Positions 7,201 to 45,648 are shown, numbered from the whole stretch's first letter. The stretch is 45,648 bases of DNA, filler included, from Jimgerdemannia flammicorona (GCA_003990765.1; 2 parts of 2 records of this genome joined end to end with filler, not necessarily neighbours in it), one strand, 5' to 3'. Numbers and translations are program-made. The notes: generated from the letters alone by a model not told the origin.

Positions 7201-7749
7201 CTCAGTACAAGAAGACTGAAGTCCATTCTGTAGAAGATTTCGAGGAAGCAAGCAACAGTGAAGACTATAGTGACCTAGACTTATACCCTATTCAGGACAC
7301 CTCCCAAAAAACAGTTTACCCAGCAGAGAAAAGGAAGAGACCTGTGGGAAGGCCATCCAGGAACATCAGCAGAATAATCATCCAAGAAGAAGATGAAGAA
7401 CATGAGGAAGAACAAGTAGAAACACCTCCCCAAACCCCCTCACCTTTTGTCTCTGAGATAAACAAGTTGCCACCAGAAGATGAAAAAATGGAATAAGAGG
7501 AATGGGAACCTGTTACTCCAAAGCCCAAGAAAAGGTACACCCCAAAGACCATGCCTAGAGACATCTACAATAAAGCCTGGCAGAAGATCCAAGAGGTCAA
7601 GATGGAAGTCCCTCTCCTGCAGTTCCTGCAACTGACACCAGCTGGAGTCCGAAACAAATTTCTGAGAACCACCAGGTCTAGCACTGGCCAAGTCCCAATC
7701 CCACAGCAAGAACCAGTTCCCATCCCTGTCCAGATAGCTGAAAGACATG

Positions 7750-8120
7750 TCAGCACCTACCTACATGGAGATATTAGAGGACAAAAGGCAAAGATCCTCA
7801 TAGACACAGGAGCAGCTATCTGTGTCATTGCCAAATGGTTCCTGGATACCCTCCAATGGCCCATTGATGGACCATCCAACCTCAGCATCATAGTAGCAGA
7901 TGGAGCCCAAACTCAACCCCTTGGAGAAGTATGAAACATCACCATCTCTCTTAGATACATTCAGTTCTCAATCCCCAAAGCTGTTGTCACCAAATCTGTC
8001 ACCTATAACATTATTCTTGGCACCAACTGGATGAAGGAAATGAATGCAGTTGTTGATATTGGCCAATAAGTACTCAAGTTTGATTACCGAGACAAGAAGT
8101 ACAGAGTTAAGGTGACCAGC
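7750..8120 (+). pseudogene. Retropepsin aspartic protease domain of pol
   Basis: AKILIDTGAAICVI (DTGA at 7803-7814) with downstream IILGTNW. Confidence 0.92.
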
Positions 8121-9429: not shown

Positions 9430-9835
9430 ATGCCCTGCTGCACCCCAAGGCCAAACCCCCAACCAAAGCCCACCCAGAGGATGTAGGATATGATCTTCAC
9501 AGCCTGGAGGACAAATCTATCAAGCCTGGAAAAACCTTCATGATCAGAACTGGATTAGCAATGCAGCTACCCCAAGGAGCTTACATCTAACTGACCTCAA
9601 GGTCTGGACTTGCCAGACAAGGAATAACCATAGAAGGAGGAACCATTGATCCAGGATATACAGGCAAAATCAAGGTTATCTTACACAATAGTAGTGCAGA
9701 ATGACACCAACTCATTAGAGGACAGAAGATTGCCCAAGCAGTCTTCATGAAAGTCAAGACTCCACAGTTACAAGAAGTCTCTAAACTAACTGAAGAAACA
9801 AGACAAGTCAAGAGATTTGGAAGTTCAGACAGGAA
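9430..9835 (+). pseudogene. dut: dUTPase domain embedded in pol between protease and RT
   Basis: All five trimeric dUTPase motifs in one frame, with two stops: DVGYDL, TSRSGLA, GGTIDPGYTG, GQKIAQAV, RQVKRFGSS. Confidence 0.93.
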
Positions 9836-10239
9836 GAAAGTACACCTCTTTCAAGTCAACTACCTCAAAAGGAATGTTCCCCAGCAAGTGTACCAGCAAC
9901 CTGTCAGACTGCATAAGAATCTTATCCTGGAGCCTGGAGAACAAACAACCTTCGAAATCTTTGCACCACCTGACCCCAGAAATCTTTTCTTTGAACCCAA
10001 GGAAGATATTCCCCATCTGGATATAGAGGGACACACATTCACCAACAAGATGAACCCAGTACACTCCTGAGCAACCAACCAAAGTTGGGAAACCATCATC
10101 TTGCTAAAAGGAACCATCATAGGACACCTGGTACCTTTTCTCAACCGAACTCATAGAGAAGTTTATGAACTAAACCTATCAGGAAATGGCAAAGGGTCCC
10201 AGAAAAAAGGAAAGGCCCCTCTGCGACCCAGGAGACAGT

Positions 10240-11200
10240 GAAGCATTGGAGAAGAATTGACACCTCAACAATAACAACAACTAGTAGAACTTCTCAATAA
10301 ATATCAAGATATCTTCACCACTGATTATGGCAACCTGCCATACAATCCATCATATCACTATAGCATAAATACAGGAAATGCAATACCCATCTATAGAATA
10401 CCCCATCACTTGAAAATATTTAAAAAGGAGTACATCCAAGAACTCTTAGACAATGGAGCCATCTGACCCTCTACCAGCCCCTGGGCTAGCCCTATACTTA
10501 TTGTACCAAAGAAAGGAGGATGGAGACTCTGTGTAGATTATAGGAAACTCAATTCAGTCACCAAAAAGAATGCCTATTCTTTGCCCAGAATCAATGATCT
10601 TTTGGATCAGTTATAAGATACCAGATACTTCAGTAGTATGGACCTCTTTACAGGATTCCATGAAATCCCCATGGACCCAAAAGACATTCAAAGACAGCCT
10701 TTCTTGCTCTAGGAAAACTGTTTGAATACCTCTGAATGCCCTTTGGACTTTGCAATGTACCCCTCACCTTTCAGAGGATGATGAATTCAGTCTATGCTCC
10801 CTTGATCCACTACTGCCTGATTGTATACATGGATGATTCTAACATCTATTCAGCAAATTTCGAAAAACACCTACACTACCTAAAGGAATACTTCAAGCTC
10901 ACCCACAAGAACCACTTGAGTCTGAATGCAAAAAAATGCTACTTTGGGAAACAGAAACTCAAATTCCTTAGATTTATAGTTTCAAAAGAAGGAACCCATA
11001 CAGACCCAAAGAAAACAGAAAAAATTAACAATTGGCTAGCACCCAAGACCCTGAAGGAAACATTATCATTCCTGATGCTAGTATCTTACTACAGAAGGTT
11101 CATCAAGGATTTTGCCCAAATTGCTGCTCCAATCCGAATTCTTCTCAAGAAAGGAGTGCCATTTAAGTAGACAGAATCACAAGAAACAGCCTTCAAAGAA
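10240..11200 (+). pseudogene. Reverse transcriptase domain (Ty3/Gypsy type)
   Basis: [37 protein letters not shown] (10826-10837), YYRRFIKDFA. Contains stops and a frameshift. Confidence 0.97.
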
Positions 11201-11212
11201 CTCAAGAACTGT

Positions 11213-11600
11213 ATGACTACAGCACCAATCCTTGTCCACCTCAATCTACAGAAGCCATTCATCTTGTATACAGATGCTTCTAAAGATGGCCTAGAAGCAG
11301 TTCTAGCCCAAGAAGAACCTGATCAACAACACCATGTAATAGCTTATATAAGTAGAACTACCAATCAGCAACAGATGAACTATGGTAGCACCAAACTAGA
11401 ATACCTTGCAGTCATATAGATGGTCACATTGTTCAAGCATTACCTTATCAGAAAAAAGTTCACCCTGATCACAGACTATACAGCCCTCAAATGGCTATTC
11501 AACTACAAGAAACCTACCTTATCCTTCAGAATTACAAAATCACCATCATCCACAAAGCAGGGAAAGCCCACAACAATGTTGATGTACTTTCCTGCCAACC
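11213..11600 (+). pseudogene. RNase H domain
   Basis: PFILYTDAS, NYGSTKLEYLAV, FTLITDYTALKWL. Confidence 0.93.
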
Positions 11601-11689
11601 CCAATGAACTAGAAGATGGGTGTCCCAAGGAACTACACCCTAAAGGAAGCTCCTCAGACCATCAAGGCACAAGAAGATCTCATCTGAAA

Positions 11690-12668
11690 AGAACATCAGA
11701 AAGCCCACCAAGGATAGACAAGTACAGAAGACAAGATTCAAAAACTGTATCAATACTGGCCCCACCTCAGGACCCAAGTCCAAGACATTATCCAGAAATG
11801 TGATACTTGCCAGAAGTACCAAGGAAAGAAGAACTATCAAGCCCCTTTACAACTGATTTCCCCACCAACTCACATCTTTCAGAGATGGAGAGTAGACATA
11901 ATAGGACCCCTGCCAATAACACTAAAACAAAACAGATATATTTTAGTATTTGTTGAACACTTGACCAAATAGCCTGAAGCATATCCCATGGAGATTGCAG
12001 ATGTCCTTTCCATCATTGGACATTTTCATGACCTTGCTCTCTGATATGAACCCTCTGAAGAACTCATCTCTGATAGAGGAACTGAATTTGTGAATAACAT
12101 AATCTCAAGTTATGCACAAATTCATAGGATCCACCTGAAATAAACCACCTCTTATCACCCTCAGACCAATGGAATGACCAAAAGAATGAACCAGACCATC
12201 AAGAAAGAACTTGTCTGAGTCAACCCTACTAATTGGGACCTCTGCTTACCTGAGATCTTATGGGAAATCCAAAATACCCCTGCTGCATCAATCAAACAAA
12301 AGTCCTTTGAAATGATGTTTGCTAAGAAGACTAGAACTGCTGACTATGAGAACCTCAGAAAGCTTCTTGAAAAAGGAGATCAGCTGTGAAATGAAGCTCA
12401 AACTCAGATTATCAAGACCTAGGAAAGACAAAAGAAGTATTATGACCAGAAATAGAGGGATCAGAAGATCAAGATTAGTAATCAAGTTCTAGTTTGGAGA
12501 AGCATGATAGAAGCAAACTTTGTCACTAAACTGGAACTAAAATAGGAAGGACTATATCTTGTATACAACATCAGAGGAACCAGCATCTATATAAGAAGCA
12601 TGAATAGACATGTCTTGAGAACTCCAGTTTATATCAATTACCTCAAGATATATCTGTACAAACCATGA
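11690..12668 (+). pseudogene. Integrase (HHCC, DDE core, GPY/F and SH3-like tail; no chromodomain)
   Basis: EHQKAHQG..YWPHLRTQVQDIIQKCDTC, VDIIGP, LISDRGTEF, TTSYHPQTNG, EGLY. Stop TGA at 12666-12668. Confidence 0.93.
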
Positions 12669-13171
12669 CTCAGAGGATAGATCAATATCTCCAGACCCTC
12701 ATTCTCAGCTCTTTCCAAGCCCTGTCAATTCCCCTGCCCCAGTTTCATCAACTTGAAGGAACCCCCATACAATTGATCCAGAAGCATCAAGAAAACCTTG
12801 CCATTGCCCAGAGGTTGCTTCAGATCTACCATCTACAAGCCTTCTATAACATTGGACAGCTATTGACAGAACAATCTTATATAAGGAGCCCAGCCGGAAT
12901 TACTCTCAGAGAAGCAAGAACTGCCAAATGAATCTACACCCTATACAATCGAAATATTGGAGTCCTGGTGCAGTCTCACTTCTACCTCAGTGATATCTAC
13001 CTGATAAATGAGACCACCTTTCAGAGTATCCTCTAACAACTAAACATCCTATTTCCTGAAGAACAAGAAGAAGATCCAGAGCTAGAATGGAGTGACCCTA
13101 GTATAGACAATGAAGTTGATGGAATAGATATAGATGTAGAAGATGCCTATGTTTATTGAAATGATGACTAA
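12665..13171 (+). pseudogene. Accessory ORF3 (~168 aa, unknown function) between integrase and 3' LTR
   Basis: A single frame from ATG 12665 to TAA 13171 with a few point-mutation stops. Homologues in the two other element copies (110-625 and 36752-37240). Confidence 0.85.
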
Positions 13172-13210
13172 AGGATAGCCTAGGACAGACTACTCTTTAG
13201 TGAGAGCTGA

Positions 13211-14277
13211 TGTGACAATCTATAAAAATGCAGCACCTAAAAAACTTAGCCAGATGACACAAACATTAGCACAGCATAGTAATCAGCAATCACTGCTGTG
13301 GAAAATGTATAAATAACCCAGATAGCTAAAGAAAGGAAACCCCTAATGGTAGCTGTCACACTAACAGTAGCTGTCACTCTGACAGTGAATGTCACCCCAT
13401 AAATAGCATTCTATAGTTAGTTAGATAGTGACCAAAATAGCAACCACAATGTATAAAATACCCCAGAGACAAGAGTGAATAAACCTCAGTTCCGAAATAT
13501 AAAGCAAAAGACAAGTCTACCTACTACACTTCAAGAGATATGCCTGCTAAAAGCCACTTGATCCTGGAAGGATTACAACACTTAGGAGAAACACCTGCTC
13601 TATAGCTACTACTAAGAGATTATGAGCTTTGCCCCTTTCCCACTCTGGTCCACTTTCCGTTACAAAGAATGAGTCCATTTTGATTCATTTGCCAGATAAG
13701 TCTGAAGAATCTGAGTTTACCATCCAAGTTTAAGAAAGAACTTTGCAGCCTTTTGAGTAATCTGCTGCTTGAGAAATAAGCCACCATTTTCAACTGCCAT
13801 TTAAGAAAGTCCACTATATTTTGTCTGCTAATCCACATCATTCTATATCCTGTCCACTGATCTGCCATATTCTGCCACACTGCAACCTATACCATTCAAG
13901 TAAACCATACTTAAGAAATTTATTGCATTTAGTCCACTATCAGAAAAGGAACCTGATTGCTATCACACTAGTAATCTGATTCCCAGAGAACCCATGCTTT
14001 TAAGAAAATCAGCTAAATTCACTGCACACAAGATCACTATATCACACAAATTAGTTTTCTGCCTAAGAAGGAAACCCATTTACACACAAAAGACCAATAA
14101 CCTAAGAATGCTACCAAATTAAAAAGTCATATACAAGAATTCTCCAGTTTGAATATTGTACTACTAGACATAATACCTGAACATTTTGTTGCTTTTGACA
14201 AAGTAGCTGAGGGCTCAAGCCAATCTATACAGCTGCCCAATCTTATAATTTGTCTCTATTGAGTCAGGTACATTACA
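13211..14277 (+). repeat. 3' LTR
   Basis: TGTGACAATC...CATTACA, preceded by a weak purine tract (TAGTGAGAGCTGA) and followed by ATAT. Confidence 0.95.
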
Positions 14278-14789
14278 ATATATATTTATATCTATTATAA
14301 ATATTGTGTGTATAAAAAGAGATCTTCATCTAGAAGAATTATATCTTTTCTTATTCCTCTTCTCTACTACAATCTCTTCATGCCTAAAGACAACAGATCA
14401 CATTCTAAGATGAATAAAATGTACTCCAGTATAAATAATTAGTACTAAGTTATGAATAATATATACCAAGCTACAAATAAATCATATCAGTTCTATGAAA
14501 CCAAGAAGTAGCAGACTATGGACAGGCTACACCAGACCATAAAGATATACAAAACCAAGGAGCAAACTATAAAGGTATACAAAACTAAGAAGTAGACCAC
14601 AGACAGGCCACATCAGATTATGAAGATATGTAAAACCAAAATGCAGACCATATGGTACCCAGATGAGAAGGCAGCCAAATAACAAAAGCCTGTACAAGAT
14701 CAAAGTGAACAGAATAAGGATGAATAAGACAAAGATAGAGAAGAGAATAATGAATGACTCAAGCTTATAATTCAGAATGACAAGGCATT

Positions 14790-15926: not shown

Positions 15927-16778
15927 AAGGACTGTCCTACTGTACCAACTTGTATAAATAACCCAGATAGCCAAATAAGGATACAAAGTATTCCTAGCTG
16001 ATATGCTATACCAGAATTTGAGATTAGTATTCCTAGCTGGTATACTATATCAGAATTTAAGATTTATGCTCCCAATAGGAATAGCTAAACATTACCAGAA
16101 ATAACAATCTATAGTTAGCCATATAGTAATCAAATAGCAATCACAACTGTATAAAATGCCCCAGAGACAAGAGTGAATAAACCTCAGTCTGAAATTGAAA
16201 CCAAAAAGCAAAAGACAAGTCTGCCTACTACACTTTGAGGGATACACCTACCAAGAGTCACTTGATCCAAGAAGGATTGCAACACTTAGGAGAAATGCCT
16301 GCTCTAAAGCCACTTTTAGGAGATTGTGAGCTTGACACCCATTTTCCACTCCGGTCCACTTTCTGATACAAAGAAGAGAAGTCCGCCATCTTGCCACAAA
16401 GCAGTCTACCTGACGCACCTTCGCAGTGAATACCTATTCGCGCAAACGAAGCAGTCTTAGACGTAACTTTGCTCAAGAATCCGCGCCGTTCCAGTTATTT
16501 TCAAGAAGTCCACCGATTCAGGAAGAATCCGCGTCACCCTCCATCCAAGAAAGAATCCGTGTTACCCGCTACCTAAGGGAGAATCCGCGTCATCTGAGTT
16601 ATTTGCCAAGAAATCCGCCATCCAAGAAAATCCCGCGCTATGTAGGAATTCGCCGCCTAATTAGGAAATATCGCCGAAATCGTCCGCGTTACGCGAAACA
16701 GAGAACCTGCACCTATTTCTGAAAGAAACCATCGAACATTTTGTTGCTTTTTGACAAAGTAACTGGGGGCTCAAGCCA
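15927..16778 (+). mobile_element. Truncated LTR of the same family (both termini missing)
   Basis: Shares AAGGACTG.CCTACTGT.CCAACTTGTATAAATAAC with the solo LTR, plus the core LTR motifs. Stops abruptly after GGGGGCTCAAGCCA. Confidence 0.9.
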
Positions 16779-22616: not shown

Positions 22617-22671
<55 letters not shown>

Positions 22672-22780: not shown

Positions 22781-22880
22781 NNNNNNNNNNNNNNNNNNNN
22801 NNNNNNNNNNNNNNNNNNNNNNNNTTAATTAATTAANNNNNNNNNNNNNNNNNNNNNNNNNNNNNNNNNNNNNNNNNNNN
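22781..22880. other. Assembly gap / artificial contig linker (N44-TTAATTAATTAA-N44)
   Basis: A six-frame-stop 12-mer is centred in symmetrical Ns, with homopolymer runs nearby. Confidence 0.95.
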
Positions 22881-24695: not shown

Positions 24696-25930
24696 ATGTC
24701 GAATTCCTTGCTCTCCCAGTTCTCTTTGACCGGCAAGAACGCCGTAGGTAAGCAGTCTGGATCTAATATCTACTAAAACAATCTCCAACAAAACTTCTCT
24801 CTGAATACGCGCTCACATGAAGAACCCACGCGCCTTTTTATCAGTTACTGGAGGCGCCCGCGGCCTTGGTCTTGAAATGATGCGCGCCCTTGCCGAAGCG
24901 GGCGCCTCAGTCGCGTGCGTCGACATGCTGTTGGACGAAGGGCAGACGTCTACCGAAGCCATCCATAAGGAGTTTGGCGTGAAGGTCACAAATTGGAAGT
25001 GCGATGTCAGGATACCTGCGGAGGTGGGTATCACGCGTACGTGCAACATAGCATCCCATTTATTCCGTCGTTCACCGTGTCCCCTTGTCCGTCGAAATAC
25101 AGGTTACCGAAGTTTTTGGAAAAATCGCCAAGGAACATGGAAGCATTGACATCTGTGTGACATCTGCGGGGATTGCCCACATCGCCCCCGCGGAAGATTA
25201 CAAAGCCGAGGACTGGAAGAACGTGTTGGACATTAACCTCCATGGCACTTTCTTCTGTGCGCAGGCAGCGGGCAAGTGAGTATTCGCCCACTTCAGCCAT
25301 CAGCGATATGCTCTACCTCTTTCTCACAATTATTTATTGTTCTCCATCCATCATCTTCAAGGCACATGCTCGCCCAAGGCAAAGGTGGCAACATTATCCT
25401 TATCGCCTCCATCTGCGGCCAAATTGTGGCCCAACCACAGCCGCAGGCCGCCTACCAGGCGTCCAAAGGAGCCGTTATTATGCTCGCCAAACAACTGGCT
25501 GGCGAGTGGGCGCAGCATGGGATTCGTGTCAACAGTATGTCTCCGGGTAAGTAAAAGATAGGGATAGGTGACCGGAGGAAGTCCCAGTTTCACTGACATA
25601 TGTCATTCTATGGACTCTGACAAATAGGCTACATCGAGACAGCCCTCACACACGGCTTCCTTAATAGTGTAGAGAACGGAGCGGAGATCAAAGAGACGTG
25701 GGAACGCCTCACTCCTCTCAAGCGGATGGGGCAGCCTTCAGAAATTAAAGCGGCAGTTGTGTACCTGGCAAGTGGCGCGAGCTCGTATGTGACTGGTAAG
25801 TTGAATTTTGGGCTGAATTTTGACAAGGTCGGGGTTTCAACTGTTTCGTAACTTTGTTTCTATTTATATATACCCATCACGCGCTCTAGGATCTAACCTC
25901 GTTCTCGACGGTGGGTATACCGTGTGGTAA
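24696..25930 (+). CDS. Short-chain dehydrogenase/reductase (sorbose reductase / polyol dehydrogenase-like); exons 24696-24747, 24845-25023, 25103-25275, 25362-25546, 25628-25795, 25890-25930
   Basis: TGGARGLG cofactor motif, catalytic YQASK, VNSMSPGY, SYVTGSNLVLDGGYTVW. All introns are GT-AG and phase-compatible. Confidence 0.95.
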
Positions 25931-31577: not shown

Positions 31578-34500
31578 TTAGGTTACTGTGGTATGTTTTG
31601 AGTCCGATGTGGCCTGTTGATCCTCGGTTCAGACACCGTCAACTCGCCTCCACCAACGCCTTTTCATAAATGCTTCCCAAGGTTCTGACATACCGGGATA
31701 TAAAGCTCCGTCAAGGTGGTGTTTTGCTTCAGAAACTCGCCTAGGGCATGTGCCCCATCGTCGCCAATCCTATTATTATCTTTAAAATAAACAGGGGAAG
31801 AGCGAACACGCAAAGATCGTGGGCTTCATTCCATCACACAGCTGCACACAATGCTTCACATGTTCTGACATACCTCCGAGATTAAGAATGGTCAAGGTCG
31901 TGTTCTACTTCAGAGGCTCGGCTAAGAAGCGTGCCCCCTTGTCGCCAATGCCATTATCTAGAATGAACAGGGGATGAGCGAACACACACAAATCATGAGC
32001 CTAATTCCATTACATAGCTGAACATAATGCTTCACACAGTTCTGATATACATTCGAGATTCAGAACGGCCAAGGTCGTGTTCCGCTTCAGAGACTTAGCT
32101 AGGGCGCGTGCCCCCTTGTCGCCAATGTCATTATCTAGAATGAACAGAGGATGAACGAACACGCATAGATCGTGAGCTCCACTCCATCACGCAGTTGCAC
32201 ACAATGCTTCACACAATTCTGACATACGTTTGAGATTCAACTCGGTCAAGGTCGTGTTCTGTTTCAGAGACTCGGCTAGGGCGCGTCCCCCCTCGCCGCC
32301 AATTTTATTTACTTTAAAATAAAGAGGGGATGAGTGAACATGCACAGATCGTGAGTTTCATCCATTACGCAGCCGCATACAATGCTTCACATAGTTCTGA
32401 CATACTTCCGATATTCAGCTTGGTCAAGGTCATGCTCTGCTTTAGAAACTCGGCTAAGGCGTGTGCTCCCTCGTCGCCAATGTTATTATCTTTAAAATAA
32501 ACAGGGAATGAGCGAACACGCACAGATCGTGAGCTTCATTCAATCATGCAGCTGCACACAATGTTCACAGAGTTCTGACATACCTGTGAGATTTAGCTTG
32601 GCCATGGTCGTGTTCTGCTTCAGAGACTCGGCTAGGGCGCGTGTCCCCTTGCCGAGAATTCTATTACCTTTGAAATGAACAGGAGATGAACGGACATATA
32701 CAGATCGTGAGCTTCATTAGCTGCACACAATGTTTCACATAGTTCTGACATACTTCCGAGATTCAGTTTGGTCAAAGTTGTGTTCTGCTCCAGAGACTCG
32801 GCAAGGGAGCGTGCCCCCTCGTCGCCAATGCTGTTTACTTCAAAATAAACAGGGAATGAGCGAACACGCACAGATCGTGAACTCCATTCCATCACGTAGC
32901 TGCACACAATGCTTCACACAGTTCTGACATACATTCGAGACTCAGCCCGGCCAAGGGCGTGTTCTGCTTCAGAAACTCGGCTAGGGCGCGTGCCCCTTCT
33001 CCGCCAATTCTATTATCTTTAAAATGAACAGAGGATGAGCGGAAACCTAGAGATCATGAGCTTCAATCCATCACGTAGCTGCAAATGCTTCAAGATACTG
33101 CGGAAATTAGGCTCGGTCAAGATCGTATTCTGCTTCAGAAACTCGGCTAGGGTGCGTGCCCCCTCGTCGCTGATGTGGTTGTCTGAAGAATTGGAACTGT
33201 GTAGATTGGAATCTTGATTCCATCACATAGGTACACAATGCTTCCTACAGTTCTGACATACCTCTAAGATTCAGCAAGGTCAACGTTGTGTTCTGCTTTA
33301 GAGACGCAGCTAGGGCGCCTGCCCCCTCCATGCCGATGCTGTTCCCTGAGGATAAACAAGTGATATATAGTGAGCCTGATTCCATCACGCAGCTGCACAC
33401 GCCTTACAATTCTGTCAAACCTTGGAGATTCAGCTCGGTCAACATCGTATGCTGCTTCAGAAATATGGCTACGACGAGCGCCCCTTTGTAGTCGATGCGC
33501 TTATCTGATGATGAGCAAGGAATTGATCGAACACCCACGAATTGTGAGCTTTATTTCTTCACACAATGCGTCACATGATTATGACATACTTTCGAGATTC
33601 AGCTTCGTCAAGGTCGTGTTCTGCTTCAGAACCAAAATAGGGCGCGTGCCCCACCGTCACCAATGCTATTATCTTTAAAATGAACAGGGAATGAGCGAAC
33701 ACGCACATGTCGTGAGGTTACAACTGCATGCAAGTTTCACACAGTTAGGACAGACTATTGAGATTCAGCTCAGCCAAGGTCGTGTTCTTTTTCAGAGACT
33801 CGGCAAGGGCGCGTGCCGCTTCGTCCCCAATGCTATTCACTTTAAAATCAACAGGGAATGAGCGAACACGCACAGATCGTGAGCGCCATTCCATCACGCA
33901 GCTGCACACAATTCTTCACACATTTCGGACATACTGTAAAGATTCAGGTCGGTCAAGGTCGTGTTCTGCTCCAGAGACTCGGTTAGGGCGCGTGCCACCT
34001 TGTCGCCAATGTCATTCTCTTTAAAATGAACAGGATATGAGCGACAACGCACAGATCGTGAGTTTCATTCCATAAGGCAGCTGAACACAATGCTTCACAT
34101 AGCTTTGACATACGTTAGAGATTCAGTTTGGCCAAGGTCGTGTTCTGCCTCAAAGGCTCGGCTAGGGCGCGTGCCCCCTCGTCGCCAATGCTATTACCGT
34201 TAAAATTAACAGGAGATGAGCGAACACGCACAGATGGTGAGCTTCATTCCATCACGAAGCTGCACACAATGCTTCACGCAGTTCTGACATACAATTGAGA
34301 TTCAGCACGGTCAAGGTTGTGTTCTGCTTCAGAGATTTCGCTAGAGTGCGTGCCCCCTTGTCGCCAATGTCATTCTCTTTAAAATGAACAGGGGATGAAG
34401 GAAAACGCACAGGTCGTGAGTTTCATTACATCAGGCTGAACACAATGCTTTACACACTTTTGACATACTTTCGAGATTCAGCTCGGTCAAGGTCGTGCTC

Positions 34501-36481
34501 TGCTTCAGAGACTCAGCTATGGCGTGCTCCCTCGTCGCCGATTCTATTGACTGAAGGACAGGATACGAGAACTTGATCTAATCACGTATCTGCGCACAAT
34601 GCTTCGCATAGTTCTGACATACTTGCCAGGTTCATCTCGGTCAAGGTTATGTTCTGCCTTAGATACTCGGCTAAGGTGTGCACCCCTCTGTCGCCAATGC
34701 TGTTCACTGAAGACGAATAGAAGCTTAATTCCATCATGCAACTGCACGCAATCCTTCACACAGTTCTGCGATTCAACTTAGTAAAAGTCGTGTTCTGCTG
34801 CAGAAACTCGGCTAGGATGCATTCCCCTTCGTGGCTGATGCTGTTCCCTGAAAATGAACAGATTTTCAATCCGTGAGCTTGATTCCATCGTGCAGCTGCA
34901 CACAATGCTTCATACAGTTCTGACATACCTTCAAGATTCAGCTCGGTAAAAATGGTGTATTGCTTCAGAGACCTGGCTAGGGCATGCGCCCCCTTGTAGC
35001 GGATGTGTTTGCCTGAGGATGAACAGAGAATTGAATAAACACCCTCAAATTGTGAGCTCGATTTCTTCATGCAAATGCACACAACGCTTCAGATAGTTAT
35101 GAGATACTTTTGAGATTAAGCTTGGTCAAGCTCGTGCTCTGCTTCAGAGATTCGGCTAGGGCGCGTGCCCCCTCGTCGCCAATGATTTTCCCTGAATATT
35201 AATAGAAGATGTGTAGATAGTGAGCTAGATTCTATTACACTGCTGCACACAACATTTCACACAGTAATAATATACCGCAGAAATCCAGTCCGATTAAGGG
35301 GGTGTTCTGCTTGAAAGACGCGGCTAGGTCGCGCGCCTCCCGGTGGCTGATGTTGTTGTCTGAAGAACAACAACGGAATGAGTGAACACGAAAAATCGTG
35401 ATTTCATTTCTTCATTCTGCTTCAGAGACTCGGCTAGAGCGCCAGCCCCCTCGTCGCCGATGCTGTTCCCTGAAGACGAACAGGAGATGTATATATTGTG
35501 AGGTTGATTCATCACAGAGCTGCACAAAGCCGCACACAGTTCTGATATACCACCGAGATTAAGCTTGGTCAAGGTCGTGTTCTGTTTCAAAGACTCGGCT
35601 AGGACTCGGGCTCCCACATCACCGATACTGTTACCTGAAGTTGAAGAGGAGGTGGTATGAGTAAACGCAAGCATTTCCATCACGCAGCAGCAAACAATCG
35701 TTCACAGTTTTGACATACAGGAGATTCAGCTTGGTCAAAGTTGTGTTTTGCTTCAGAGATTCGGCTAAAGTGCGGGCCAACAGAATACCGATGCTATTTG
35801 CTGGATATGAACAGGTAATTTGAGTATGCTCAGATCACAAACTTGCTACTACCCACTTCGCAAACAAAATTAACATACAGCTGAGATTGATCTTGGTCAG
35901 CGTTATGCTTCAGAAATTCGACGAGAACACGCGCTGCTCGATCGTCGATGCTCTTTCCTGAAGATGTACAGTCCGGAATGAGTAAGTTCAATTTCCTACA
36001 AATAATAGTTCGCATATTTCTGGCATACTAGAGAGCTTCAACTCATGCGAGATCGTGTTCTGCTTCAGAAATTCGGCTAGGATCCTGGCCTTCTCGTCGC
36101 CGATCTCACTTTCTGAATGGAGCACGAACAAACCATGAGATATGTAACCTGTATATAATGATTCAAACGAAGCTGACATACCGGTCGTGTTCTGCTTCAG
36201 AGGCTAATCGAGAGCGCAGGGCTCTTCAGTGCCGAAAAGTTTCTCTAAAATAGAAGAATGATTAATAAGCATACACTGACAATTAACTCTAAGCCAAATG
36301 TAGTACGCCAACTCCGTCACCCGCTATCATTACCTTCAATTCTACCATGGGTCGAACAACACGGACAATGAGAAAGAACGCAAAAACCCGGTGTTTAGCA
36401 AATGTGAATATGATTAGCCGGCTACGTGCCTCATGTCGCTACATACCTCGATTCGGCTACTGTCCGAGAGTGACCCGCCAT
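31578..36481 (-). CDS. RI-like (LRR_6/NLRC3-type) leucine-rich-repeat gene with one LRR per exon, ~28 cassette exons; partly defective or alternatively spliced
   Basis: Each exon encodes xNxIGDEGARALAESLKQNTTLTxLNLx and is mostly bounded by AG and GTATGT-like sites. Putative exon 1 at 36481-36447, microexon at 36341-36334, and an end at 31664 (read-through) or 31578 (last exon). Confidence 0.85.
31694..36244 (-). repeat. Tandem array of ~28 exon+intron units, period mostly ~150-180 bp
   Basis: The introns are homologous as well as the exons (GTATGTCAGAACTGTGTGAAGCATTGTGTGCAGCTG...CTCACGATCTGTGCGTGTTCGCTCAT...TTTTAAAG). Confidence 0.97.
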
Positions 36482-36564
36482 ATGTGAATGCTGTTCTGTG
36501 ACTTTCTTGAGTGTTCCTGCGTGTAGAATTTGAACTCCAGCCGAGGAAGTGGTGAATACGGAAA

Positions 36565-37816
36565 TATCAGTACTAGTTTGAAGAAGCATAATTGAAATAA
36601 ACTTTGCTGCCAAACTAGAGTCCAAATGGGAAGGACCTTATCTTGTATATAATATCAGAGGAACAAGTGTCTATATAAGAAATATGGATGGATGCACTCT
36701 GAGGACTCCAGTATATATCAATTACCTCAAGATATATCTACCTTCTATACAATGATCCAGAGGATTGACCAGCACCTCCAGACCCTTATCCTCAGTTCTC
36801 TTCAAGCTCTGTCAATTCTTCTATCTCAGTTTAGAGCAACTGTTGGCAACTGCTCCCAATTGATCCAGGTTCATCAAGAGAACCTCGCCATAGCCCAGTG
36901 ACTTCTAGAAATCTATTAGCTACAGGTATACTATACTATTGGAGAACAACTATAAGACCTCTCAACCTCTAAGTATATCTATATCAGATATATCACAGAC
37001 CTCATCCAAAGGTACTATTGTAGCAAACAGACTCTATACCATCTATAAGTAAAATACAGGAGCATTAATCTATGCTCAATTTTACCTTAGAGATATCTGA
37101 GAGATGACTCCTACTACTTATCAGAGTATCATCCATCATATTGAGATACTATTTCCTAAAGAAAAAAAAGTATCCTTAGAATAGAGTAGCTCAAAACTAA
37201 AGAAGATAATAGAATGAGATCAGATGCTGAAAATGCCTACCTATATAGTAATCAGATAGCAACTATAACTGTATAAAATATTCCAGTAATTTGAATAAAT
37301 AAATCTCAGTCTGAAATTTGAAATCAAAAAGCAAAAAAATAAGTCTACCTATTATACTTTGAGAGATATATCTATCAAAAGCTACTTGATTCAGAAAGAA
37401 TTACAATACTTAGAAGAAATATCTACTCTAAAGTTACTTTTAGGAGATTGTGAGCTTGATATCTAATTTACACTTCAGTCTACTTTCCAATACAAAGAAA
37501 AGAAGATCTGATTTAGTATACTTATCAGACTAAGCCTGAAGATCTACAATTTGAAGAACTAGAAGTCTACTGCCATCTGCCATTCAAAAAGTCTGTCATT
37601 TTTGGAAGAATGTGAGAAATCTACTGAATTCACCATGTTATACTGATCTCACCTAATTAGGAAACTTACTAAAATCATCTATATTATGTAAATAAGAACT
37701 TGTACTAAAAACCATTGAATATTTTGTTACTTTTTAACAAAGTAACTGAGGGCTCAAGCCAATCTACATAGTAGCCCCAATCTTGTAATTTGCCTCTATT
37801 GAGCTGGTATGTTACA
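36565..37816 (+). mobile_element. Third Gypsy fragment: integrase tail, ORF3 (36752-~37240) and internally deleted 3' LTR ending GTTACA
   Basis: KWEGPYLVYNIRG..YLKIY and MIQRIDQHLQTLILSS. LTR motifs at 37245-37816 are heavily C>T/G>A mutated. Confidence 0.92.
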
Positions 37817-39416
37817 CTATCTTAATATATATTTACTAAATAAATTTATATAGTAATTATACTTATAGAATATATTCAAACTCTCAACCACATGATATAA
37901 TTAGGAGATGACTTCATTAAAATTAACATTAAGGATATCTACCTTTACATTTCTCTTTACTTTAATAACTAGCAGTTTCTAGCCTTTCAATAGCAATAGA
38001 TCAACTGAAAGTTCTGGATAATATTATGGTCTATCTTTGATATCTTAAATATAGATAAAGATGATGATAGCAGTTGTCCCCACTCCAAGAGCTCACCGCC
38101 AAATCAATACACTGGGAAACAGGTCGAACGACACCGATTCTTTTTTAAAGGTGAATGAAGGAAGTAGCAACGGAAAATCGTTAGGTATCGTCCTGCGATG
38201 CAATCAATGCCAAAAATTAAATTAAATTAAATTAAAATTAAATAAAATAAATGCACGCGGCATATGCACTTATGCTTTCCATCCTTTTGGTGTGGCTAAC
38301 TCACAAGCATGCAACTATATGGTCAATCATCCATGCACTCTAGATTTCTAGTATTTAATGTCAAAATATTATTTCTGCTTTTTCGAAGGCGTGCTATTAC
38401 AATCAACATTGAAACTAACATTTATATGTTGCTCGAGGTGGTGCGGGTATATACATGGCTTGTGGGACGTACGGTGGTGCGTGTGCCATGTTAATATACA
38501 TCGACAGCCGACGCGGAGCTGTCGCAGGCTGTCGTTGCGGGAATCCTCAAGCAAATCAATCACAGAGCAAGCGTTCGGGAATCAAGAACAAAGATTGTCA
38601 AGGGAAACAACTGGGATGTGCTCTATCACTCGGTGTCTTGGACATTGGATTCAATTACCTATTATCACGTTAATGATCCTACCACGGGATAGCTATCACT
38701 CCGTTTCCTCAACCCTCAAGGCGTCCTGCCACCTGAAGACCTCGATTCTGGAATGATTAAGCAGAATGCTAATATATAGCTACATCGTATTCATAAGAGA
38801 TTAAAAAATGGATGATTATGAGCCAGGAAATATCAACCCTCCTATTCTGCGTGAACATTTCCATCCAATATTTTGGAGCGTAGCTTTGTGGCTTTGTGTT
38901 GTCATCCCAATGTTGAATGTCCGAACGGCATATTTCTATAATCACCTGATTTGGTCCTGATATTATGTTCAAGATCGACTTCGGCAGTAGTGACAGTCTA
39001 AAAATAAATGAGTAACATTGCGAGTTCGTGTGGTCTCTCGCCATGACAGTGCCTCGATTACTGGAAAACATGTCTGGCAAAACTTCAAGCTAATGCAGCG
39101 CACGTTGAATAAATGAAGTCGGCTGTTTTGCCGACCATAACAATATATATGGTCCTTTCTTATAGACGTCGAAGCCGTGTACATATGGGCACATATAGGA
39201 ATCCATCTCCCATTCCCTGGTTTACCTCGACGGAAAAACCAAGATGCCAATACGGTAGTCGTCAGAGAGGCTATTGGTTGAGTAGCAGAGGCATCTGAGA
39301 ATCCGAGAATTGTCATGTGTTCAGGCAGTCACCCCTTGCACAAAGAAAACGAATGTCAACTTTATCCCCCACCACCACTGCCACCTCCTCCACGACCGTA
39401 CCTCTCCATTTTCCGA

Positions 39417-40115
39417 ATGGCAACTATCGAAAAAAGTTACTACTTCAGGATTCGCATGGATGGCGAAGAGCTCTCTCACTTTTTTGAAATATCCAGCCAT
39501 GAAAACGAACTCACTTTCGAGAAACTTACCATGGCCATCATTGAACAATTCGAGGTTCGTACACACCCTGTTCCCTATGTGTTCCCTATGAGCACCCCCT
39601 CCCCCCCCCTTGCCTACTCGACTCCTCCTTTCCTCTTTTACTTCCTTTCGGTCTTCTATATGAAGTTTAATATACTCCTCTGATGATTAAATTTCCTCGA
39701 TATCCAGGACGGCTTCACCTTGAACGATTACATTATCACCTGCAGAAACCTCGCCGAGGACGCAAAGAGGGAAGTGCTCAAGAGCGACGTGGTCCTGAAA
39801 CGCGCGCTCAAGCATATGACAGGGGATGAGGCATTGGAGATGATGCTGATCAAGAAACCTACAAAGAAGTCCGATAAGGTTATCAAGATTGGTACGCGAT
39901 CCTCTCATTCGATTCTCGCTCCAAGTTCACCTATTGTTTACCAGGATTCTTTTTTTTTTTTTTTGGTCCCACAGAAAATCCCTCAACCCCCAAACCTGTT
40001 TCAACACCGTCCGCCCGGTCAACCCACCCTTTGCATGCCGCCCTAGGTGCGCAAATCATCGCCTCGCCATCAACGATACAGACGCCCAAAAGGAGACCGC
40101 AACGGGCGATATCGG

Positions 40116-40159
<44 letters not shown>

Positions 40160-41722
40160 GAGGGACTACTACGTACCCCCACGAGACAGACCACAACAAT
40201 GGAGTGGACACCAAAGGACGACGAGGACGAGGGGCCGGCTCACCTCCCGACAACCCAAACACCGATAAGGGCGACACAGACACCCACGGCCCAGTCACTG
40301 CCGGTGTCGCGGAACTCTACAAAGCCGAACACCGCAAGGAGGCAGCTGTTTTCGGCGGATTCGAGAGGCAAAGACAGCAAAGGGTCGAAGCCAACCGGGC
40401 ATATGCCGACAAATCCCGCACTTCCAAAGCTGCTCTTATCAGCAAGGCAGGCCTCAAAGACGCTCACTTCTGCAAGACACCCATCCCCCGCAACATTAAT
40501 ATCGGATGACGAGGAAGAAGATGGATCACGCCCAGTCAAGTCGTTCATGACGTCACCAACCGAGCCGTCACGCGTTATCGGCGAGGGCGCCCAGGCCGTC
40601 TTGGGTATGGGGCTGCCATTATCGCTGCTCGAATCTCAAATATCCTCTCATCAGAACCTCCTCTCCGCGGAGTCTCCAAGCCTTGTACGACGCAGCTCCC
40701 GGTTTGCAATGCGTGACCCGGTTCCGCCGAATCACGAGACGGATGAGGAGGCGGAGTATGTGGTGGCCACGGTGGAGCATCGGTCCATGGAATTGAGACA
40801 GCCACCCTTATCCTCGGTCGAGGAGAACTTGGATCAGCCCCACATCACAGAATCTCCGCGCACTCCTCTTCGGCGCAGCAAACGGCCTCAAACTATGATG
40901 TCGCCCAATTATGACGTCGTGGCAATGATGAAGCGCGTGGCAGGTGATGAGGAAGGGGTGGATGTCCGCAGTACGAAGCGAAGCCGTACGCGGAGCCATG
41001 CCGGCGGTAAGAGTAATGGTGGCAGTAACGGACTCGACCGGAACGCGCCTAGCTCAAAGCACAAAATCCCGCTCCTAACGAAGCTCGGATTCAGGTTCAC
41101 CCCCGGCGATCACTACTACGCTTACAAGTGTAGCCACGTCCTAAAAGCCCTCCGCGGGGACAAGCGCCAGATTTGGAAGAATTTCAATAAGAATGCTGCA
41201 CTCGAGGGAAGGATACCATACATGCTCAGTAGTCACGAGTGGCATCCGTTCCTCCCGTACAAGCTCACACTCTCCTACAGCCAGTACCTCCACTGGGCCA
41301 AAGAAGTTCGCAAATTTGGCCGGCTTGTGAATCCTACCGCCAACCTTACCTTTGTCCCAGGTACAAAAGCCATCCGCATGTTCATTAATGTCACCGCCAG
41401 GGGCAGCACATGGTGGATCGACCTTGGGTGGGTTGCGCTGGGAAAACCTATTGCGAAGAAGTGGGACGACGTTCCCGAGTATTGCATTGAGAAGCGTGTG
41501 AAGAGCGAGTTGATGGAGTTTCGAATTTGCGTACCTGAACTGCTGATGGATGTGCCGTTGGTAAGGGTAGAGGTTGGTACGAAGGCAGGAGGAAGAGAGC
41601 CGATCGTGTGTGAGGGGCAGTGCCGGCGGGACGGGGGGGGAATGGAGGTTTCGGAGGCGGAGGCGGAGGCGGAGGCGGAGTCGGATATTTTGAGGTGGTT
41701 CACATTTTGCGATTGTTTGTAG
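39417..41722 (+). CDS. Hypothetical ~665-aa protein with N-terminal PB1/ubiquitin-like domain, disordered acidic S/T/P-rich middle and aromatic C-terminal domain; exons 39417-39554, 39708-39891, 40047-41722
   Basis: Two GT-AG introns join the ORFs in frame with a long 563-codon ORF. Domain calls are from pattern only. Confidence 0.75.
40118..40156 (+). repeat. (GAC)13 microsatellite encoding poly-Asp
   Basis: Seen directly in the sequence. Confidence 0.98.
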
Positions 41723-44325
41723 GGGAACGGCGATGAAGAGGCGGGAGGATGAGGAGATAGGAAAGCAAGGGGTACTAGCGCTAAAGTTTGGAAGTGGTGG
41801 AGTGTGGGACTATGGTGAGAGGAGAATAGGGAGAAATCAGGAGATGGGGTGAAGTACAGGACTTGTGATGGAATGTAATTCTGTAGGTTTTTGTCGTAAG
41901 TGAACCGTTGGGCCGTGCATCTGCATGAACGTTTGATGGTTGGCAGATTCGATTGTATTACATTTTTATTTCTGAGATTAAAATACAAATTGAGAGAAGG
42001 AAGTATAAGTAAGCACTACAATTTCAATGGCGAGTGATTGGGAATATCACAGCACTACAAATGGGTGCCCTCGCCTAAAGTGAGGCAAATTCAAAAAGGA
42101 TCGCCTTCTCGTTGAGCAAAGCGGGCATAGCCAAACATGGTTATCTCAACACGTTCCAAGATTTGCAAATAAAAAATAATAACTACAAGGAGGAAGCCTT
42201 ACAAGAATTTTCCAGGGACTCTTGGATCTGTTACGTTTGGAGAGATTATTTTGTCCGTCCTTATTCCCTTCCTCAATGGCGTCTGCACTATTCTCGTCGT
42301 TGAGCCGTTTCGAGCCCTGGTTTTTTCACTCGCATTCAGGCGTCCCATGATGTCTTGGTGTGTCGCTTCCGTGGCTCGGTTGGGCAATTCCCACCCGCCA
42401 ACCATGTCAGACAGATGGAATCCAGCCCACAAATAAATTTTCTGTCCTCGGGCACTCAGGAAACTCGAATGCATAGACCAAAAGGGACCTGTATAATAAT
42501 ATATTACAGGATTTAGGTAAATCTAATATCCAATAACTGAAGTGACAACAAATCCATTGTGCACGAGGAAACGTCCGAGCAGCGTACTAATACCTCCTTA
42601 CCTCCTTGCTAAAGAACTGAAATAAATAATCCAGTGTGTACGCCTAGGTGTCAATCCGCCAGATTTTAGTCACAAAATATATCGCACCCGAAATACCTGA
42701 GTCTACGTGAGCTCTTCATTGTGTTCATTGTAGCTCTGCCATCCTAGCTTTTGGTTGGCTTTCCAAGAGCATCCATCCACCGGTGCACTGCACGCTGTCG
42801 GCGAATTTCTTTACCTACTCAAGGTCATTATATTGACTAAAAACGTTTCTTATCCGCGGTGCATCTCTGATTTTTTTTTTTTTTTTTTTGGCATCACGAT
42901 CAGTTCCGGTTCCACATATATCCTGCATAGAATTTGTGACCGTAATATTGGATGTAAAATCGCCTCTGACGTGTGATCGGATATCATACATCAATGGAAC
43001 CACTTAAATAAATTTTGCATTGATGTGATGGCATGCAGCATTGGCACTTGTAGTGATAGACTGATACTTTCATTGAGGTATCGGCCAAGTGTCGAAACAA
43101 GTATATCAATCTCATGACCAAGTGTTCAATGCGCAAGCATACTACAACCTCTATAAGAGCGTGATGACCTCACAGGGTGATTGAAGTTTAGAAGAAGCTT
43201 AGTCCGGTGGTAACTGACGATGGAAGCCGTCAACAAAACGTCCGGGGAGAGAGCATCGGCCATTTTGCGAATTATATAAAGATGTATAAACAATCCGCGT
43301 AAAAATAAATGGTGCCCTATGGCGTCGACGTCGGCCTATTGGCCGTAACTCCAGAGCAAACAGACGAAAATCAACGACAAAGTCTGTAGCTGATTTCAAT
43401 TTACCTGCTTTAATGTCATCAGGAGCGGTAATCGCTTCGTCCACGACGCGAGTCGTGACAATGATGCGTGTCAAGCCTTTCGCATTCGCGTGCTCCGATT
43501 GAACAGTCATATTTATGTGCTATTCATGTCATGTATGTCGTTGCAATTCAATTAACCAAACAAGTGCCATGAATTCGTGAAGAGGTATAGCTCCCTATAA
43601 CAATTTTCATAAAGTGTCCCTTCGCAGATTAAAAGGTTGTGGGGAATGTGATGTTGAATTATGAATAAGGTAGGCGGGTGTTAGTCATTTGGAACCATAA
43701 ATACTCCCAAGGACCCTAATTTACATGCAAAGAGGCCATTTATTGAAAAGGAAAAGAGAGATCCGTTAAATAACATAAATGTGGATACGAGCTTGTCCGA
43801 CAACGCACATACATCTTGCATCTTTCATTGGGTGGAAAGCAAATGTACTGGAGCCAAGAAAACGATATTGATTAACAAATTTTTTGCACTTATTGCATAT
43901 ATATACAAAAAACAAAATAAAATAAAATAAAACAATGACTGATGCCAACGTCTGCCGGTACTTGCTAGTGATTACTGCCAGAAGAATATCACATTTCATT
44001 GGTGGCTTTTGCAGACACCTCTTAACTATTTGCATTGAAAGCGTAACTCAACCTCCTCCCAGTCAGGGAGTACCGAGAAGCAAATATCTGGGACACCGGC
44101 TTGATAGCGCGCCCTGTGGCAAACATAGAATGAAAACCGGTTTGCGATAGATTTAACACAAATATGTAATTTCTCGTACGAAAGTAGATTGGACACGGTC
44201 AGAGCATCGGTACTCTTGATAATTAATTATGTGTACTACGGCTGTGACTGCATCCCCTGCTGAAGCCACAGTTGAAGTTCACGTGGTTTGGAGGATACGC
44301 CAAGCACTCTATACCCTTTACCATT

Positions 44326-45597
44326 ATGCACCTCAGCAAACTCCCCACCGGGCCACACAGGCGCCTGCTAGCCACCTTACTCGCCTTCGTCCTCTTTGCC
44401 AACATAGTCTTCATCCTCTACCCAACGTCGCCAACCTCATCCGCAGCACCTGCTGTCAAACCCGAAGCACCTGCCGTCAAACCCGAAGCACCTGCCGTCA
44501 AACTAATTGGCAACAACCCCTTCCAAGCCGAGTATGACAACAACGACCCCCAGTCCTGCAATGGTCTCCATCCTATTTTGCGCGCAGACCTCAACGAGAC
44601 TATCCCACGACACTACGCGCTTAAAGGACCGAAAACCCGTGTCGTGACGATTTTCTTGTGGCGCCAGCAGACCTACGCAATGAGTAATATTTCGTGGCCC
44701 GAACTCGCAAAGGATCTATGCCCATATCCGCCAGAGCTGGTCGCCTACTTCAAAGCGTATTGGGACCGGCATGTGAACGATGACTACCCGAGATGGCCCA
44801 ATGGGTGGGCGCCTTGCTGGCTATGGAAGATCAACTCCGAATCAGACAATCTGGTAAGGACTTGTGATGGCACTGGGACGCGCTTCAAACTGACAACAAA
44901 CTATACCGAGTTTCGGGATGCCGATATTATACACATGGACTATGTGTTTTACCTTGGAGCGTACGAGCACGTGTTATTTTGGAACGTCGCTTTGTTACCC
45001 CCGAAGCTAGGGGGCCACATATGGTGGGTGAGTAATGAGCGTCCAGTTTCACTCATCATCGTTAAATGCAATTCCTCACTGTTGTCCTGCCGCCAAGTCT
45101 AACTAACCATTTATCCAAATCACAACCAGCTCAACTACGGACGGGAATCCGTTGCATATTACCCATACGTCCGCATGGAATCCTTCCTCCGCAACTTTGA
45201 CTTCACCATCGGCGCCCCTGCTAGTCTTTACGACCTCTCGCACCCGCTCGAACCCATAACTTCAAAACGCCTTAAATTGATGATCGCCGCGCCTCCGCCG
45301 ACCATTCGCTCGGACGGCATCCAGCTCGCGTGGATGGTATCCAACTGTTCGCCTAGGAACCAGAGGAACGAGGTAATGAAAGGATTGATGGAGGAGATGG
45401 AAGTCCACTCGTTTGGCCGGTGCATGCATAATATGGACTTCCCGGAGGAAATTAAGTTGAAGTTTAAGCTGACCGAGGAGGTGTCGAATAACCAATATTG
45501 GGGGCCGTGGCAGGATATCAAGCGGGAAATATTTGCCGGTTATCCGTTTGTCTTCGTGCCAGAGAATTCGAATTGCGAGGGTTATGTCACCGAAAAG
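44326..45597 (+). CDS. GT10 alpha-1,3/4-fucosyltransferase, type II membrane protein, 3'-partial; exons 44326-45027 and 45130-45597
   Basis: N-terminal TM anchor, LAWMVSNC, VHSFGRC, and the GT10 motif YPFVFVPENSNCEGYVTEK followed by a GT donor at the contig end. Confidence 0.92.
44444..44503 (+). repeat. 21-bp in-frame repeat, ~3 copies (APAVKPE), in the fucosyltransferase stem
   Basis: Seen directly in the sequence. Confidence 0.95.
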
Positions 45598-45613
45598 GTA
45601 TGTTGTCAGTGTG

Positions 45614-45648
<35 letters not shown>

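Follow-up and report, generated by a model that had tools for sequence, protein, structure and literature searches.

Leucine-rich repeat (LRR) genes in which each repeat occupies an exon of its own are known from several eukaryotes. The nearest described system to the one reported here is the LRR-ROCO family of brown algae: in Ectocarpus and Saccharina, each LRR lies on a 72-nt phase-2 exon and the exons are shuffled, positive selection falls on a few sites of the concave face, inactivated exons and several splice variants occur, and at least half of the ROCO loci are disrupted, with birth-and-death dynamics (PMC3341825, PMC11378527). In human NOD-type NLRs, too, each 28-residue LRR is coded by one exon (PMC2747839). 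The fungal NLRs that have been characterised or surveyed carry WD40, TPR, ankyrin or HEAT repeats and not LRRs (PMC10197012, PMC12258605), and in our literature search no paper on arrays of LRR exons came up for either Endogonales or Mucoromycota. Here we describe an array of 28 tandem exon-plus-intron units, each coding one LRR of the ribonuclease-inhibitor (RI) type, in a stretch of 45,648 nucleotides (hereafter the window, that is, the whole stretch of DNA analysed) from Jimgerdemannia flammicorona, a member of the Endogonales within the Mucoromycotina. The array did arise through duplication and diversification of exon units within a family of RI-type LRR genes, and the copy in the window is probably a pseudogenised relic of that family, which would itself evolve by birth and death.

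The comparison with the brown-algal genes shows both likenesses and differences. One LRR per exon, a symmetric exon phase, a repetitive exon-intron layout, diversification of the (here predicted) concave face and the presence of dead exons are common to the two. Unlike the algal exons, those of the array are of 84 nt, in phase 1, and code a 28-residue RI-type repeat; a ROC-COR GTPase or other signalling domain is lacking, with no Roc or COR match in Pfam among 43 open reading frames (ORFs) of at least 90 aa in the window or among 11 ORFs of a related metagenomic array (L001, below); and the array belongs to a fungus. Alternative splicing is on record for the algal genes and would be a prediction for the array. 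Since the array ends in a stop, its LRRs appear to be C-terminal, which is a further difference from the LRR-ROCO arrangement. With vertebrate NOD/NLRC-type NLRs (PMC2747839), the array has in common the 28-residue RI-type repeat per exon and the LRR_6 signature, and NLRC3-like proteins are among its best HMMER matches. Unlike these receptors, it has no NACHT domain in the window, and while the NOD exon begins at xLxxNxL, the boundary in the array falls within the codon before the N, so that, by the motif given for the NOD exon, the register is off by a few residues (PMC2747839). The introns of the array, of about 95 nt, are mutually homologous and thus show recent tandem duplication, in contrast to the vertebrate genes.

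Architecture and coding capacity

A core-motif scan found 28 sites inside 31600-36300, corresponding to 28 tandem units on the minus strand from 36244 to 31669, which are numbered here from the high coordinate (unit 1) to the low coordinate (unit 28). An nhmmer profile of the unit returned 29 rows, all on the minus strand from 36232 to 31669, which represent the same number of units with unit 6 split in two; at E<=1 there was no further match to the profile elsewhere in the window. Tandem Repeats Finder reported a single array at 31669-34552, with a period of 179, 16.6 copies, 73% matches and a score of 2342. The units are spaced by 110-181 nt overall and by 166-181 nt within units 12-28, and units 1-11, which form the 5' part of the array, exceed units 12-28 in age and divergence.

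On the minus strand, a canonical unit consists of an AG, an exon of 84 nt, and an intron of about 95 nt that opens with GTATGT and closes with AG. The exon is in phase 1-1: two bases complete a split codon, 27 whole codons follow, and one base is left over. Exactly this length and phase are found in 20 of the 28 exons, and 18 units (2, 5, 7, 8, 9, 11, 13, 15, 16 and 18-26) are intact, by which we mean 84 nt long, bounded by AG and GT splice sites, and stop-free. Alignment of the 18 intact exons (72% mean column identity) gives the consensus NxIGDEGARALAESLKQNTTLTxLNLx for the 27 whole codons, which is the 28-29-residue LxxLxLxxNxIGDxGAxxLAxxLxxN-type repeat of RI-type LRRs. All database work on the array used single exons or read-through ORFs as queries. 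Of three such read-through ORFs, one matched Pfam LRR_6 at 27.1 bits against a cut-off of 23.4, the second reached 19.9 bits, below the cut-off, and the third gave no match. The introns are homologous to each other, with 89% mean column identity over 11 of them.

An earlier sequence-only reading of this DNA had proposed about 28 tandem units at 31694..36244, each typically with an 84-nt exon for a single RI-like LRR, in symmetric phase 1-1 where intact, and a homologous intron. The motif scan and the profile bear out the count, the exon lengths and intron alignment bear out the unit, and an origin by tandem duplication of exon and intron together is supported as well; the six exons offered as examples (32051-32134, 32228-32311, 32406-32489, 32584-32667, 32754-32837 and 32933-33016) are units 26, 25, 24, 23, 22 and 21 exactly. 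That the coding strand is the minus strand, that nine units are disabled and that the 5' units are the older ones had not been remarked upon. The units are as follows:

31669..36244, minus: whole array of 28 exon-plus-intron units (Tandem Repeats Finder, motif scan, nhmmer)
36182..36244, minus: unit 1, exon remnant of 63 nt with stops in all three frames; disabled
36029..36112, minus: unit 2, exon of 84 nt; intact
35879..35957, minus: unit 3, exon of 79 nt, frameshift; disabled
35719..35800, minus: unit 4, exon of 82 nt, frameshift; disabled
35551..35634, minus: unit 5, exon of 84 nt; intact
35373..35469, minus: unit 6, internal deletion from the 3' part of the exon across the donor into the 5' part of the intron (profile alignment limited to positions 3-55 and 123-166); disabled
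35276..35359, minus: unit 7, exon of 84 nt; intact
35108..35191, minus: unit 8, exon of 84 nt; intact
34929..35012, minus: unit 9, exon of 84 nt; intact
34768..34847, minus: unit 10, exon with an 11-nt deletion that takes its end and the GT donor; disabled
34623..34706, minus: unit 11, exon of 84 nt; intact
34469..34550, minus: unit 12, exon of 82 nt, frameshift; disabled
34293..34376, minus: unit 13, exon of 84 nt with T as its last base; intact
34114..34197, minus: unit 14, exon with an in-frame TAA and with CG in place of the AG acceptor; disabled
33935..34018, minus: unit 15, exon of 84 nt with AG as its first bases; intact
33756..33839, minus: unit 16, exon of 84 nt with the donor GTCTGT; intact
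33590..33672, minus: unit 17, exon of 83 nt, frameshift; disabled
32051..33504, minus: units 18-26 including introns, the longest intact run, of nine 84-nt exons in succession
33504-33421, 33345-33262, 33182-33099 and 33016-32933, minus: exons of units 18-21
32837-32754, 32667-32584, 32489-32406, 32311-32228 and 32134-32051, minus: exons of units 22-26
31874..31957, minus: unit 27, exon of 84 nt whose codon 17 is an in-frame TAG (consensus CAG); disabled
31664..31779, minus: unit 28, the terminal unit, 3 nt longer at the start and 1 nt shorter at the end

Stops, frameshifts or lost splice sites thus disable nine of the 28 units (1, 3, 4, 6, 10, 12, 14, 17 and 27). If all usable splice sites are used, the message is 2416 nt long and stays free of stops for 291 codons at most, and the array copy cannot encode one long protein. 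Nor would skipping the broken units restore it throughout, because a direct join of unit 13 to unit 15 sets the final T of the one against the initial AG of the other and creates a TAG junction codon. Skipping unit 14 therefore adds a stop, and the loss of that unit breaks the frame whether it is skipped or not. By the same token, a symmetric phase does not by itself guarantee that every exon subset is open: the proposal that any subset of exons would splice in frame is right as to frame and fails as to open reading. Splicing of the contiguous units 18-27 leaves 268 codons without a stop, and the first ATG among them is codon 20 of unit 18. In unit 28, if the following GTATGT is not used for splicing, the frame continues for 9 codons to a TGA at 31666-31664, which is plausibly the original stop.

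At the opposite end, our reading of the sequence upstream of the array revealed no start exon compatible with phase 1. One candidate first exon, with an ATG near 36480 and a GTATGT donor, was rejected, as its phase is wrong and a join to either unit 1 or unit 2 leads into a stop. The Pfam search of the 43 window ORFs, which short exons could escape, recovered no NACHT, NB-ARC, kinase, MYND or other candidate partner domain, and six-frame reading of 36100-39900 gave no candidate for an N-terminal domain. The other matches of these ORFs were to transposon domains, a short-chain dehydrogenase, a GT10 glycosyltransferase and, weakly, Mcl1. Within the window, the array has no tie to an NLR. Premature stops, frameshifts, lost splice sites and the want of a compatible start, in DNA of coding ancestry, are together the features of a pseudogene. 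The receptor gene that had been envisaged is accordingly not there as an intact gene at the array locus, which has nine disabled units of 28, no start and no N-terminal domain.

Variation among the units

The pattern of differences between units is of a kind expected of a coding repeat with a variable surface. Across the 66 pairs formed by 12 young units, introns are more alike (83.4%) than exons (78.4%). Differences within the exons cluster in four hypervariable codons, namely codons 2, 23 and 27 and the split junction codon, which in these 12 units show 59 differences from the consensus (0.41 per site), as against 74 in the other 24 codons (0.086 per site, close to the intron rate of about 0.09). 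In an LRR with the consensus LxxLxLxxNxL, the β-strand makes up the inner concave surface (PMC2747839). Placed on this consensus, codons 23, 27 and the junction codon would be the x positions of the β-strand and codon 2 would lie just past it, so that the four are predicted to sit on the concave face or beside it.

Selection was gauged by the Nei-Gojobori method, that is, from pairwise counts in small samples. For nine young intact units the ratio of nonsynonymous to synonymous change (dN/dS) is about 2.2-2.4 (2.43) at codons 2, 23 and 27 and 0.46-0.49 in the framework, whereas for nine older units it is 1.03 at the same three codons, which are saturated, and 0.42 in the framework. The intron divergence of the young set is K = 0.18. 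In three pairs of units that are reciprocally nearest by their introns, 34 of 239 intron sites, 49 of 215 framework sites and 14 of 32 hypervariable sites differ, and the contrast between hypervariable sites and introns is significant (Fisher P = 0.0002). Indels are depleted in the exons, with 8 events as against 40 in the introns over units 2-27 (binomial P=1e-5). Stop codons are likewise fewer than simulated neutral change would produce when all 28 units are considered (3 stop-carrying units vs 8.0 expected, P=0.024), although the 12 young units show no such depletion (2 vs 2.5). A permutation test of the pairwise homoplasy index (PHI) type did not detect a significant mosaic history among the window units (P=0.095).

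CpG decay was considered as a cause of the fast change in exons and rejected. CpG sites do change more (0.168 in exons and 0.143 in introns); it is nonetheless not a sufficient cause, because exon sites outside CpG (0.124) still exceed intron sites outside CpG (0.089). A separate observation concerns the 5' halves of the introns in units 12-27 (31780-34468), in which nearest units differ by only 3-8%, a lower figure than for any exon part. A candidate RNA element in the intron was dismissed, the sole Rfam match scoring 19.9 against a gathering score of 100 bits (E=0.72), and no stable or covarying intron structure was found by RNAalifold (covariation term +0.19) or by folding of a single intron (z=+0.87). 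Hence neither RNA structure nor a known RNA family accounts for the conservation of these half-introns.

We read this pattern as suggestive of long-term coding constraint together with diversity-enhancing selection at the predicted binding face, followed by a recent relaxation of constraint. The array had also been interpreted as a diversifying recognition module. The hypervariability of codons on the predicted binding face, their dN/dS above 2 and the recurrence of these variable codons in L001 speak for the diversification, while the copy at hand is not an intact module.

Related loci, protein relatives and flanks

A reference-based scan of metagenome contigs matched at least 594 stretches, and of these four (L001-L004) were confirmed, so that there may be further related loci. 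L002 is a 1.7-kb piece identical to L001, and neither L003 nor L004 matches the unit profile. L001 has seven full units, all seven with 84-nt phase-1 exons and AG and GT splice sites, followed by degenerate 3' units, as well as an additional 16-nt exon that codes a β-strand; ahead of the array stands a first exon of 128 codons with an ATG. The pairwise difference between its units is 0.663 at the four codons identified in the window, 0.253 in the framework and 0.274 in the introns. These four codons rank 1, 2, 4 and 5 of 28 in L001, and only 3 of 20475 four-codon sets are equally variable. In the pair of units with the closest introns, 4 of 63 intron sites differ, as do 9 of 72 framework sites and 11 of 12 hypervariable sites. 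The codon-specific diversification is thus replicated in an independent locus. The PHI-type permutation test indicated a mosaic history for L001 (P = 0.0005). Both window unit 27 (31874-31957) and unit m3 of L001 (9710-9793) bear a TAG at codon 17, where the consensus is CAG (Gln); a C-to-T change arising by chance in both may be the reason.

The first exon of L001 (8821-9204, plus strand) codes a helical-looking module of 128 residues, for which we found three relatives among 1.84 billion representatives, none with an LRR. Two of the three, BC938DRAFT_477507 and BC936DRAFT_137556, come from J. flammicorona and contain repeats as well as IQ-like motifs. As this exon is without a counterpart in the window and its relatives are without LRRs, it offers no clue to the lost part of the window array. 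The LRR arrays may be joined to different 5' modules at different loci, or may merely adjoin them.

A 125-residue read-through ORF from the array, used as a protein query, returned generic RI-type LRR proteins (77 matches in a set of 2064 candidates of 220-2000 aa, and 10 in a set of 109 candidates of 68-219 aa), including coral and vertebrate NLRC3-like proteins, kinase-LRR proteins of Capsaspora, F-box-LRR proteins of rotifers and RNI-like proteins of Mortierellomycota. The RNI-like/LRR_6 proteins of Mucoromycota, such as P0009 and P0023 of Lobosporangium transversale and the MYND-LRR proteins P0011 and P0092 of J. flammicorona, resemble the array in repeat type and in a very similar consensus (…IGDEGA..LAE.LK.NTTLT.L.L), and they belong to the phylum of the host or, for the MYND-LRR proteins, to its very species. 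Their best local identity to the read-through query is nevertheless 39-47%, and they are intact with N-terminal domains, whereas the array has none. P0011 and P0092 stand at 47%, and the searches, which covered 68-2000 aa, brought up no closer annotated protein of J. flammicorona. The short unnamed ORFs P0083-P0087 and P0090 are read-throughs of exon, intron and exon, and align to the window at about 50-60% identity across an exon, its intron and the next exon; because these alignments span the intron, the exon-plus-intron unit must occur elsewhere. Exact look-up of eight ATG-started read-through ORFs of the array in the protein collection retrieved none of them, which is uninformative.

The array lies in transposon-rich surroundings, of which the parts relevant here are:

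36245..36568, minus: 324-nt stretch between unit 1 and a gypsy fragment
36569..37842, plus: 5'-truncated Ty3/gypsy fragment with the integrase C-terminus and 3' region
about 6000-14300, plus: degraded Ty3/gypsy element with pieces of aspartyl protease, dUTPase, reverse transcriptase and RNase H in many short ORFs

The 324-nt stretch contains no compatible start exon and has no match elsewhere in the window or in L001. The gypsy fragment starts 325 nt upstream of unit 1, as read on the coding strand of the array, and is 5'-truncated, since it matches only the 3' part (12485-14303) of the larger element. Related pieces resembling long terminal repeats lie at 923-1175, 4833-5077, 13422-13669, 16121-16381 and 37243-37505. 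Beyond the fragment, an ORF at 39878-41719 on the plus strand shares 98% identity with the J. flammicorona hypothetical protein BC936DRAFT_137549 over 582 residues, which points to that species or one very near to it and upholds the fungal host that had been presumed for the array; the two differ in the length of a poly-Asp tract and of a Glu-Ala repeat, so that the window must stem from an isolate, haplotype or assembly other than that of the record. Further along the plus strand, a GT10 fucosyltransferase-like ORF (44248-45648; Pfam Glyco_transf_10, E=2.9e-12) runs past the end of the window and is preceded in the same frame by a 284-aa ORF, with one stop between them that may be intronic. 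At 24805-25146 (plus) is an N-terminal fragment of a short-chain dehydrogenase (adh_short, E=3e-9), which introns or decay seem to have broken up. Two runs of N, read as assembly gaps, at 22781-22824 and 22837-22880 adjoin a 49-nt poly-T at 22620-22668.

Status of the array copy and of its family

The reading that we consider probable is that the array copy is a pseudogenised relic of a birth-and-death family of RI-type LRR genes. Under it, the array would have been the C-terminal repeat region of an RNI/LRR_6 leucine-rich-repeat gene in a J. flammicorona-like fungus, and would have grown by repeated tandem duplication and unequal exchange of the exon-plus-intron unit of about 179 nt. For most of its history it would have evolved as coding DNA with retention of the scaffold residues, while four codons per repeat were driven or kept apart by diversifying selection, a pattern predicted for a binding surface that adapts to variable ligands. 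The 5' end, the start codon and any N-terminal domain would have been lost later, perhaps through a transposon-associated deletion next to the truncated gypsy fragment, and the copy also carries at least nine disabling lesions. With the 5' end lost and these lesions in place, the copy is most likely non-functional at present.

Several points weigh against this reading. Units 18-26 are intact in a row and the TAG of unit 27 could serve as a normal stop; an LRR-only product of about 250 residues from an internal ATG is possible, as are expression and exon skipping of the array. L001 has one stop-bearing exon and yet has a start codon and an N-terminal exon, and working genes of this family may tolerate dead exons, as Ectocarpus ROCO loci are reported to do (PMC3341825). 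The 5' part of the array may sit elsewhere through misassembly, the runs of N being at 22781-22880 and none near the array. As to the statistics, the four window codons were picked from the same data on which they were later tested, the pairs of units are not independent, and the indel counts depend on the alignment, with shared events counted repeatedly.

Of the alternatives, the one that survives best, though we hold it to be unlikely, is that the array is a working variable LRR receptor, as the earlier reading proposed, transcribed with its broken units skipped and with subsets of exons joined into many isoforms. The canonical exons, all in phase 1-1 with good splice sites, and the diversification at predicted binding positions are consistent with this, and the single-LRR-exon ROCO genes of brown algae set a precedent in having both splice variants and inactivated exons (PMC11378527, PMC3341825). 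Unit 14, without an acceptor, would even be skipped automatically; the outcome, however, is the TAG junction codon noted above. Units 3, 4, 12 and 17 shift the frame and yet retain good splice sites, units 6 and 10 have acceptors and no donors, and the introns show no RNA structure that could steer the choice of exons (z = +0.87; covariation term +0.19). Neither a phase-1 start codon nor a 5' exon is found, the ATG at 36480 being out of phase and leading into a stop, and the number of stops in the young units is that of neutral expectation.

A more modest proposal, distinctly unlikely in our judgement, is that translation from an internal ATG of unit 18 or 19 to the TAG of unit 27 yields a short LRR-only protein, the 5' units being dead. 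It draws on the nine intact exons in a row, on the 268 open codons and the ATG of unit 18 mentioned above, and on a framework dN/dS below 1 in these units. Units 18-26, however, are the youngest part of the array and have had less time to decay, which is reason enough for their being intact. There is besides no evidence of a promoter or 5' exon for such a product, and no similar annotated J. flammicorona protein of 68-2000 aa.

It is also conceivable, if very unlikely, that start-less LRR cassette arrays of Endogonales are substrates of diversification, either by exchange of exons with expressed genes or by variable choice of exons among coenocytic nuclei. If so, the conserved introns would be homology and splice handles around hypervariable one-repeat exons, and these fungi would possess an LRR-based variable recognition system analogous to the ROCO genes of brown algae or the variable lymphocyte receptors (VLRs) of lampreys. 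Lamprey VLR germline cassettes and other silent donor arrays, like the array in the window, comprise many tandem start-less LRR cassettes with variable binding positions. Unlike the lamprey system, the array is accompanied by no incomplete expressed gene and no deaminase, and it bears no evidence of somatic assembly, so that the likeness is an analogy only. A related proposal, that the array is a silent library from whose start-less cassettes sequence passes into expressed LRR genes elsewhere in the genome, by gene conversion or by unequal exchange, strikes us as extremely doubtful. Introns more alike than exons (83.4% vs 78.4%), with 5' halves that differ by 3-8%, could act as homology blocks around the variable exons; L001 has a significant mosaic signal (PHI P=0.0005), and the N-terminal module to which its array is joined has three relatives, all without LRRs. 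Against this, the PHI signal is not significant in the window units (P=0.095), there is no known recipient gene and no sign of transfer between loci, and ordinary unequal crossing-over with selection explains the pattern equally. The least probable explanation, already disfavoured, is a non-coding satellite amplified from an exon-intron fragment without protein-level selection, or an assembly artefact: the regular 179-nt period, the many broken units and the transposon-rich surroundings might recall one, but codon-specific variation, a framework dN/dS of 0.46, depleted exon indels, fewer stops than neutral and the same variable codons in the independent L001 all contradict the former, and differences of 15-30% between units make a collapse or chimeric assembly of identical repeats unlikely.

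Finally, the value of the locus lies in the family to which it belongs, the window copy itself being probably dead. The array, L001 and the environmental read-through ORFs point to a Mucoromycotina lineage with RI-type LRR genes built of one-repeat exons, which would expand by duplication of the unit and become diverse on the predicted binding face, with introns that remain closer to one another than the exons do. Since this architecture is the route by which brown algae and vertebrates vary their LRR receptors, these genes are a candidate for a fast-evolving recognition family in mycorrhizal early-diverging fungi.

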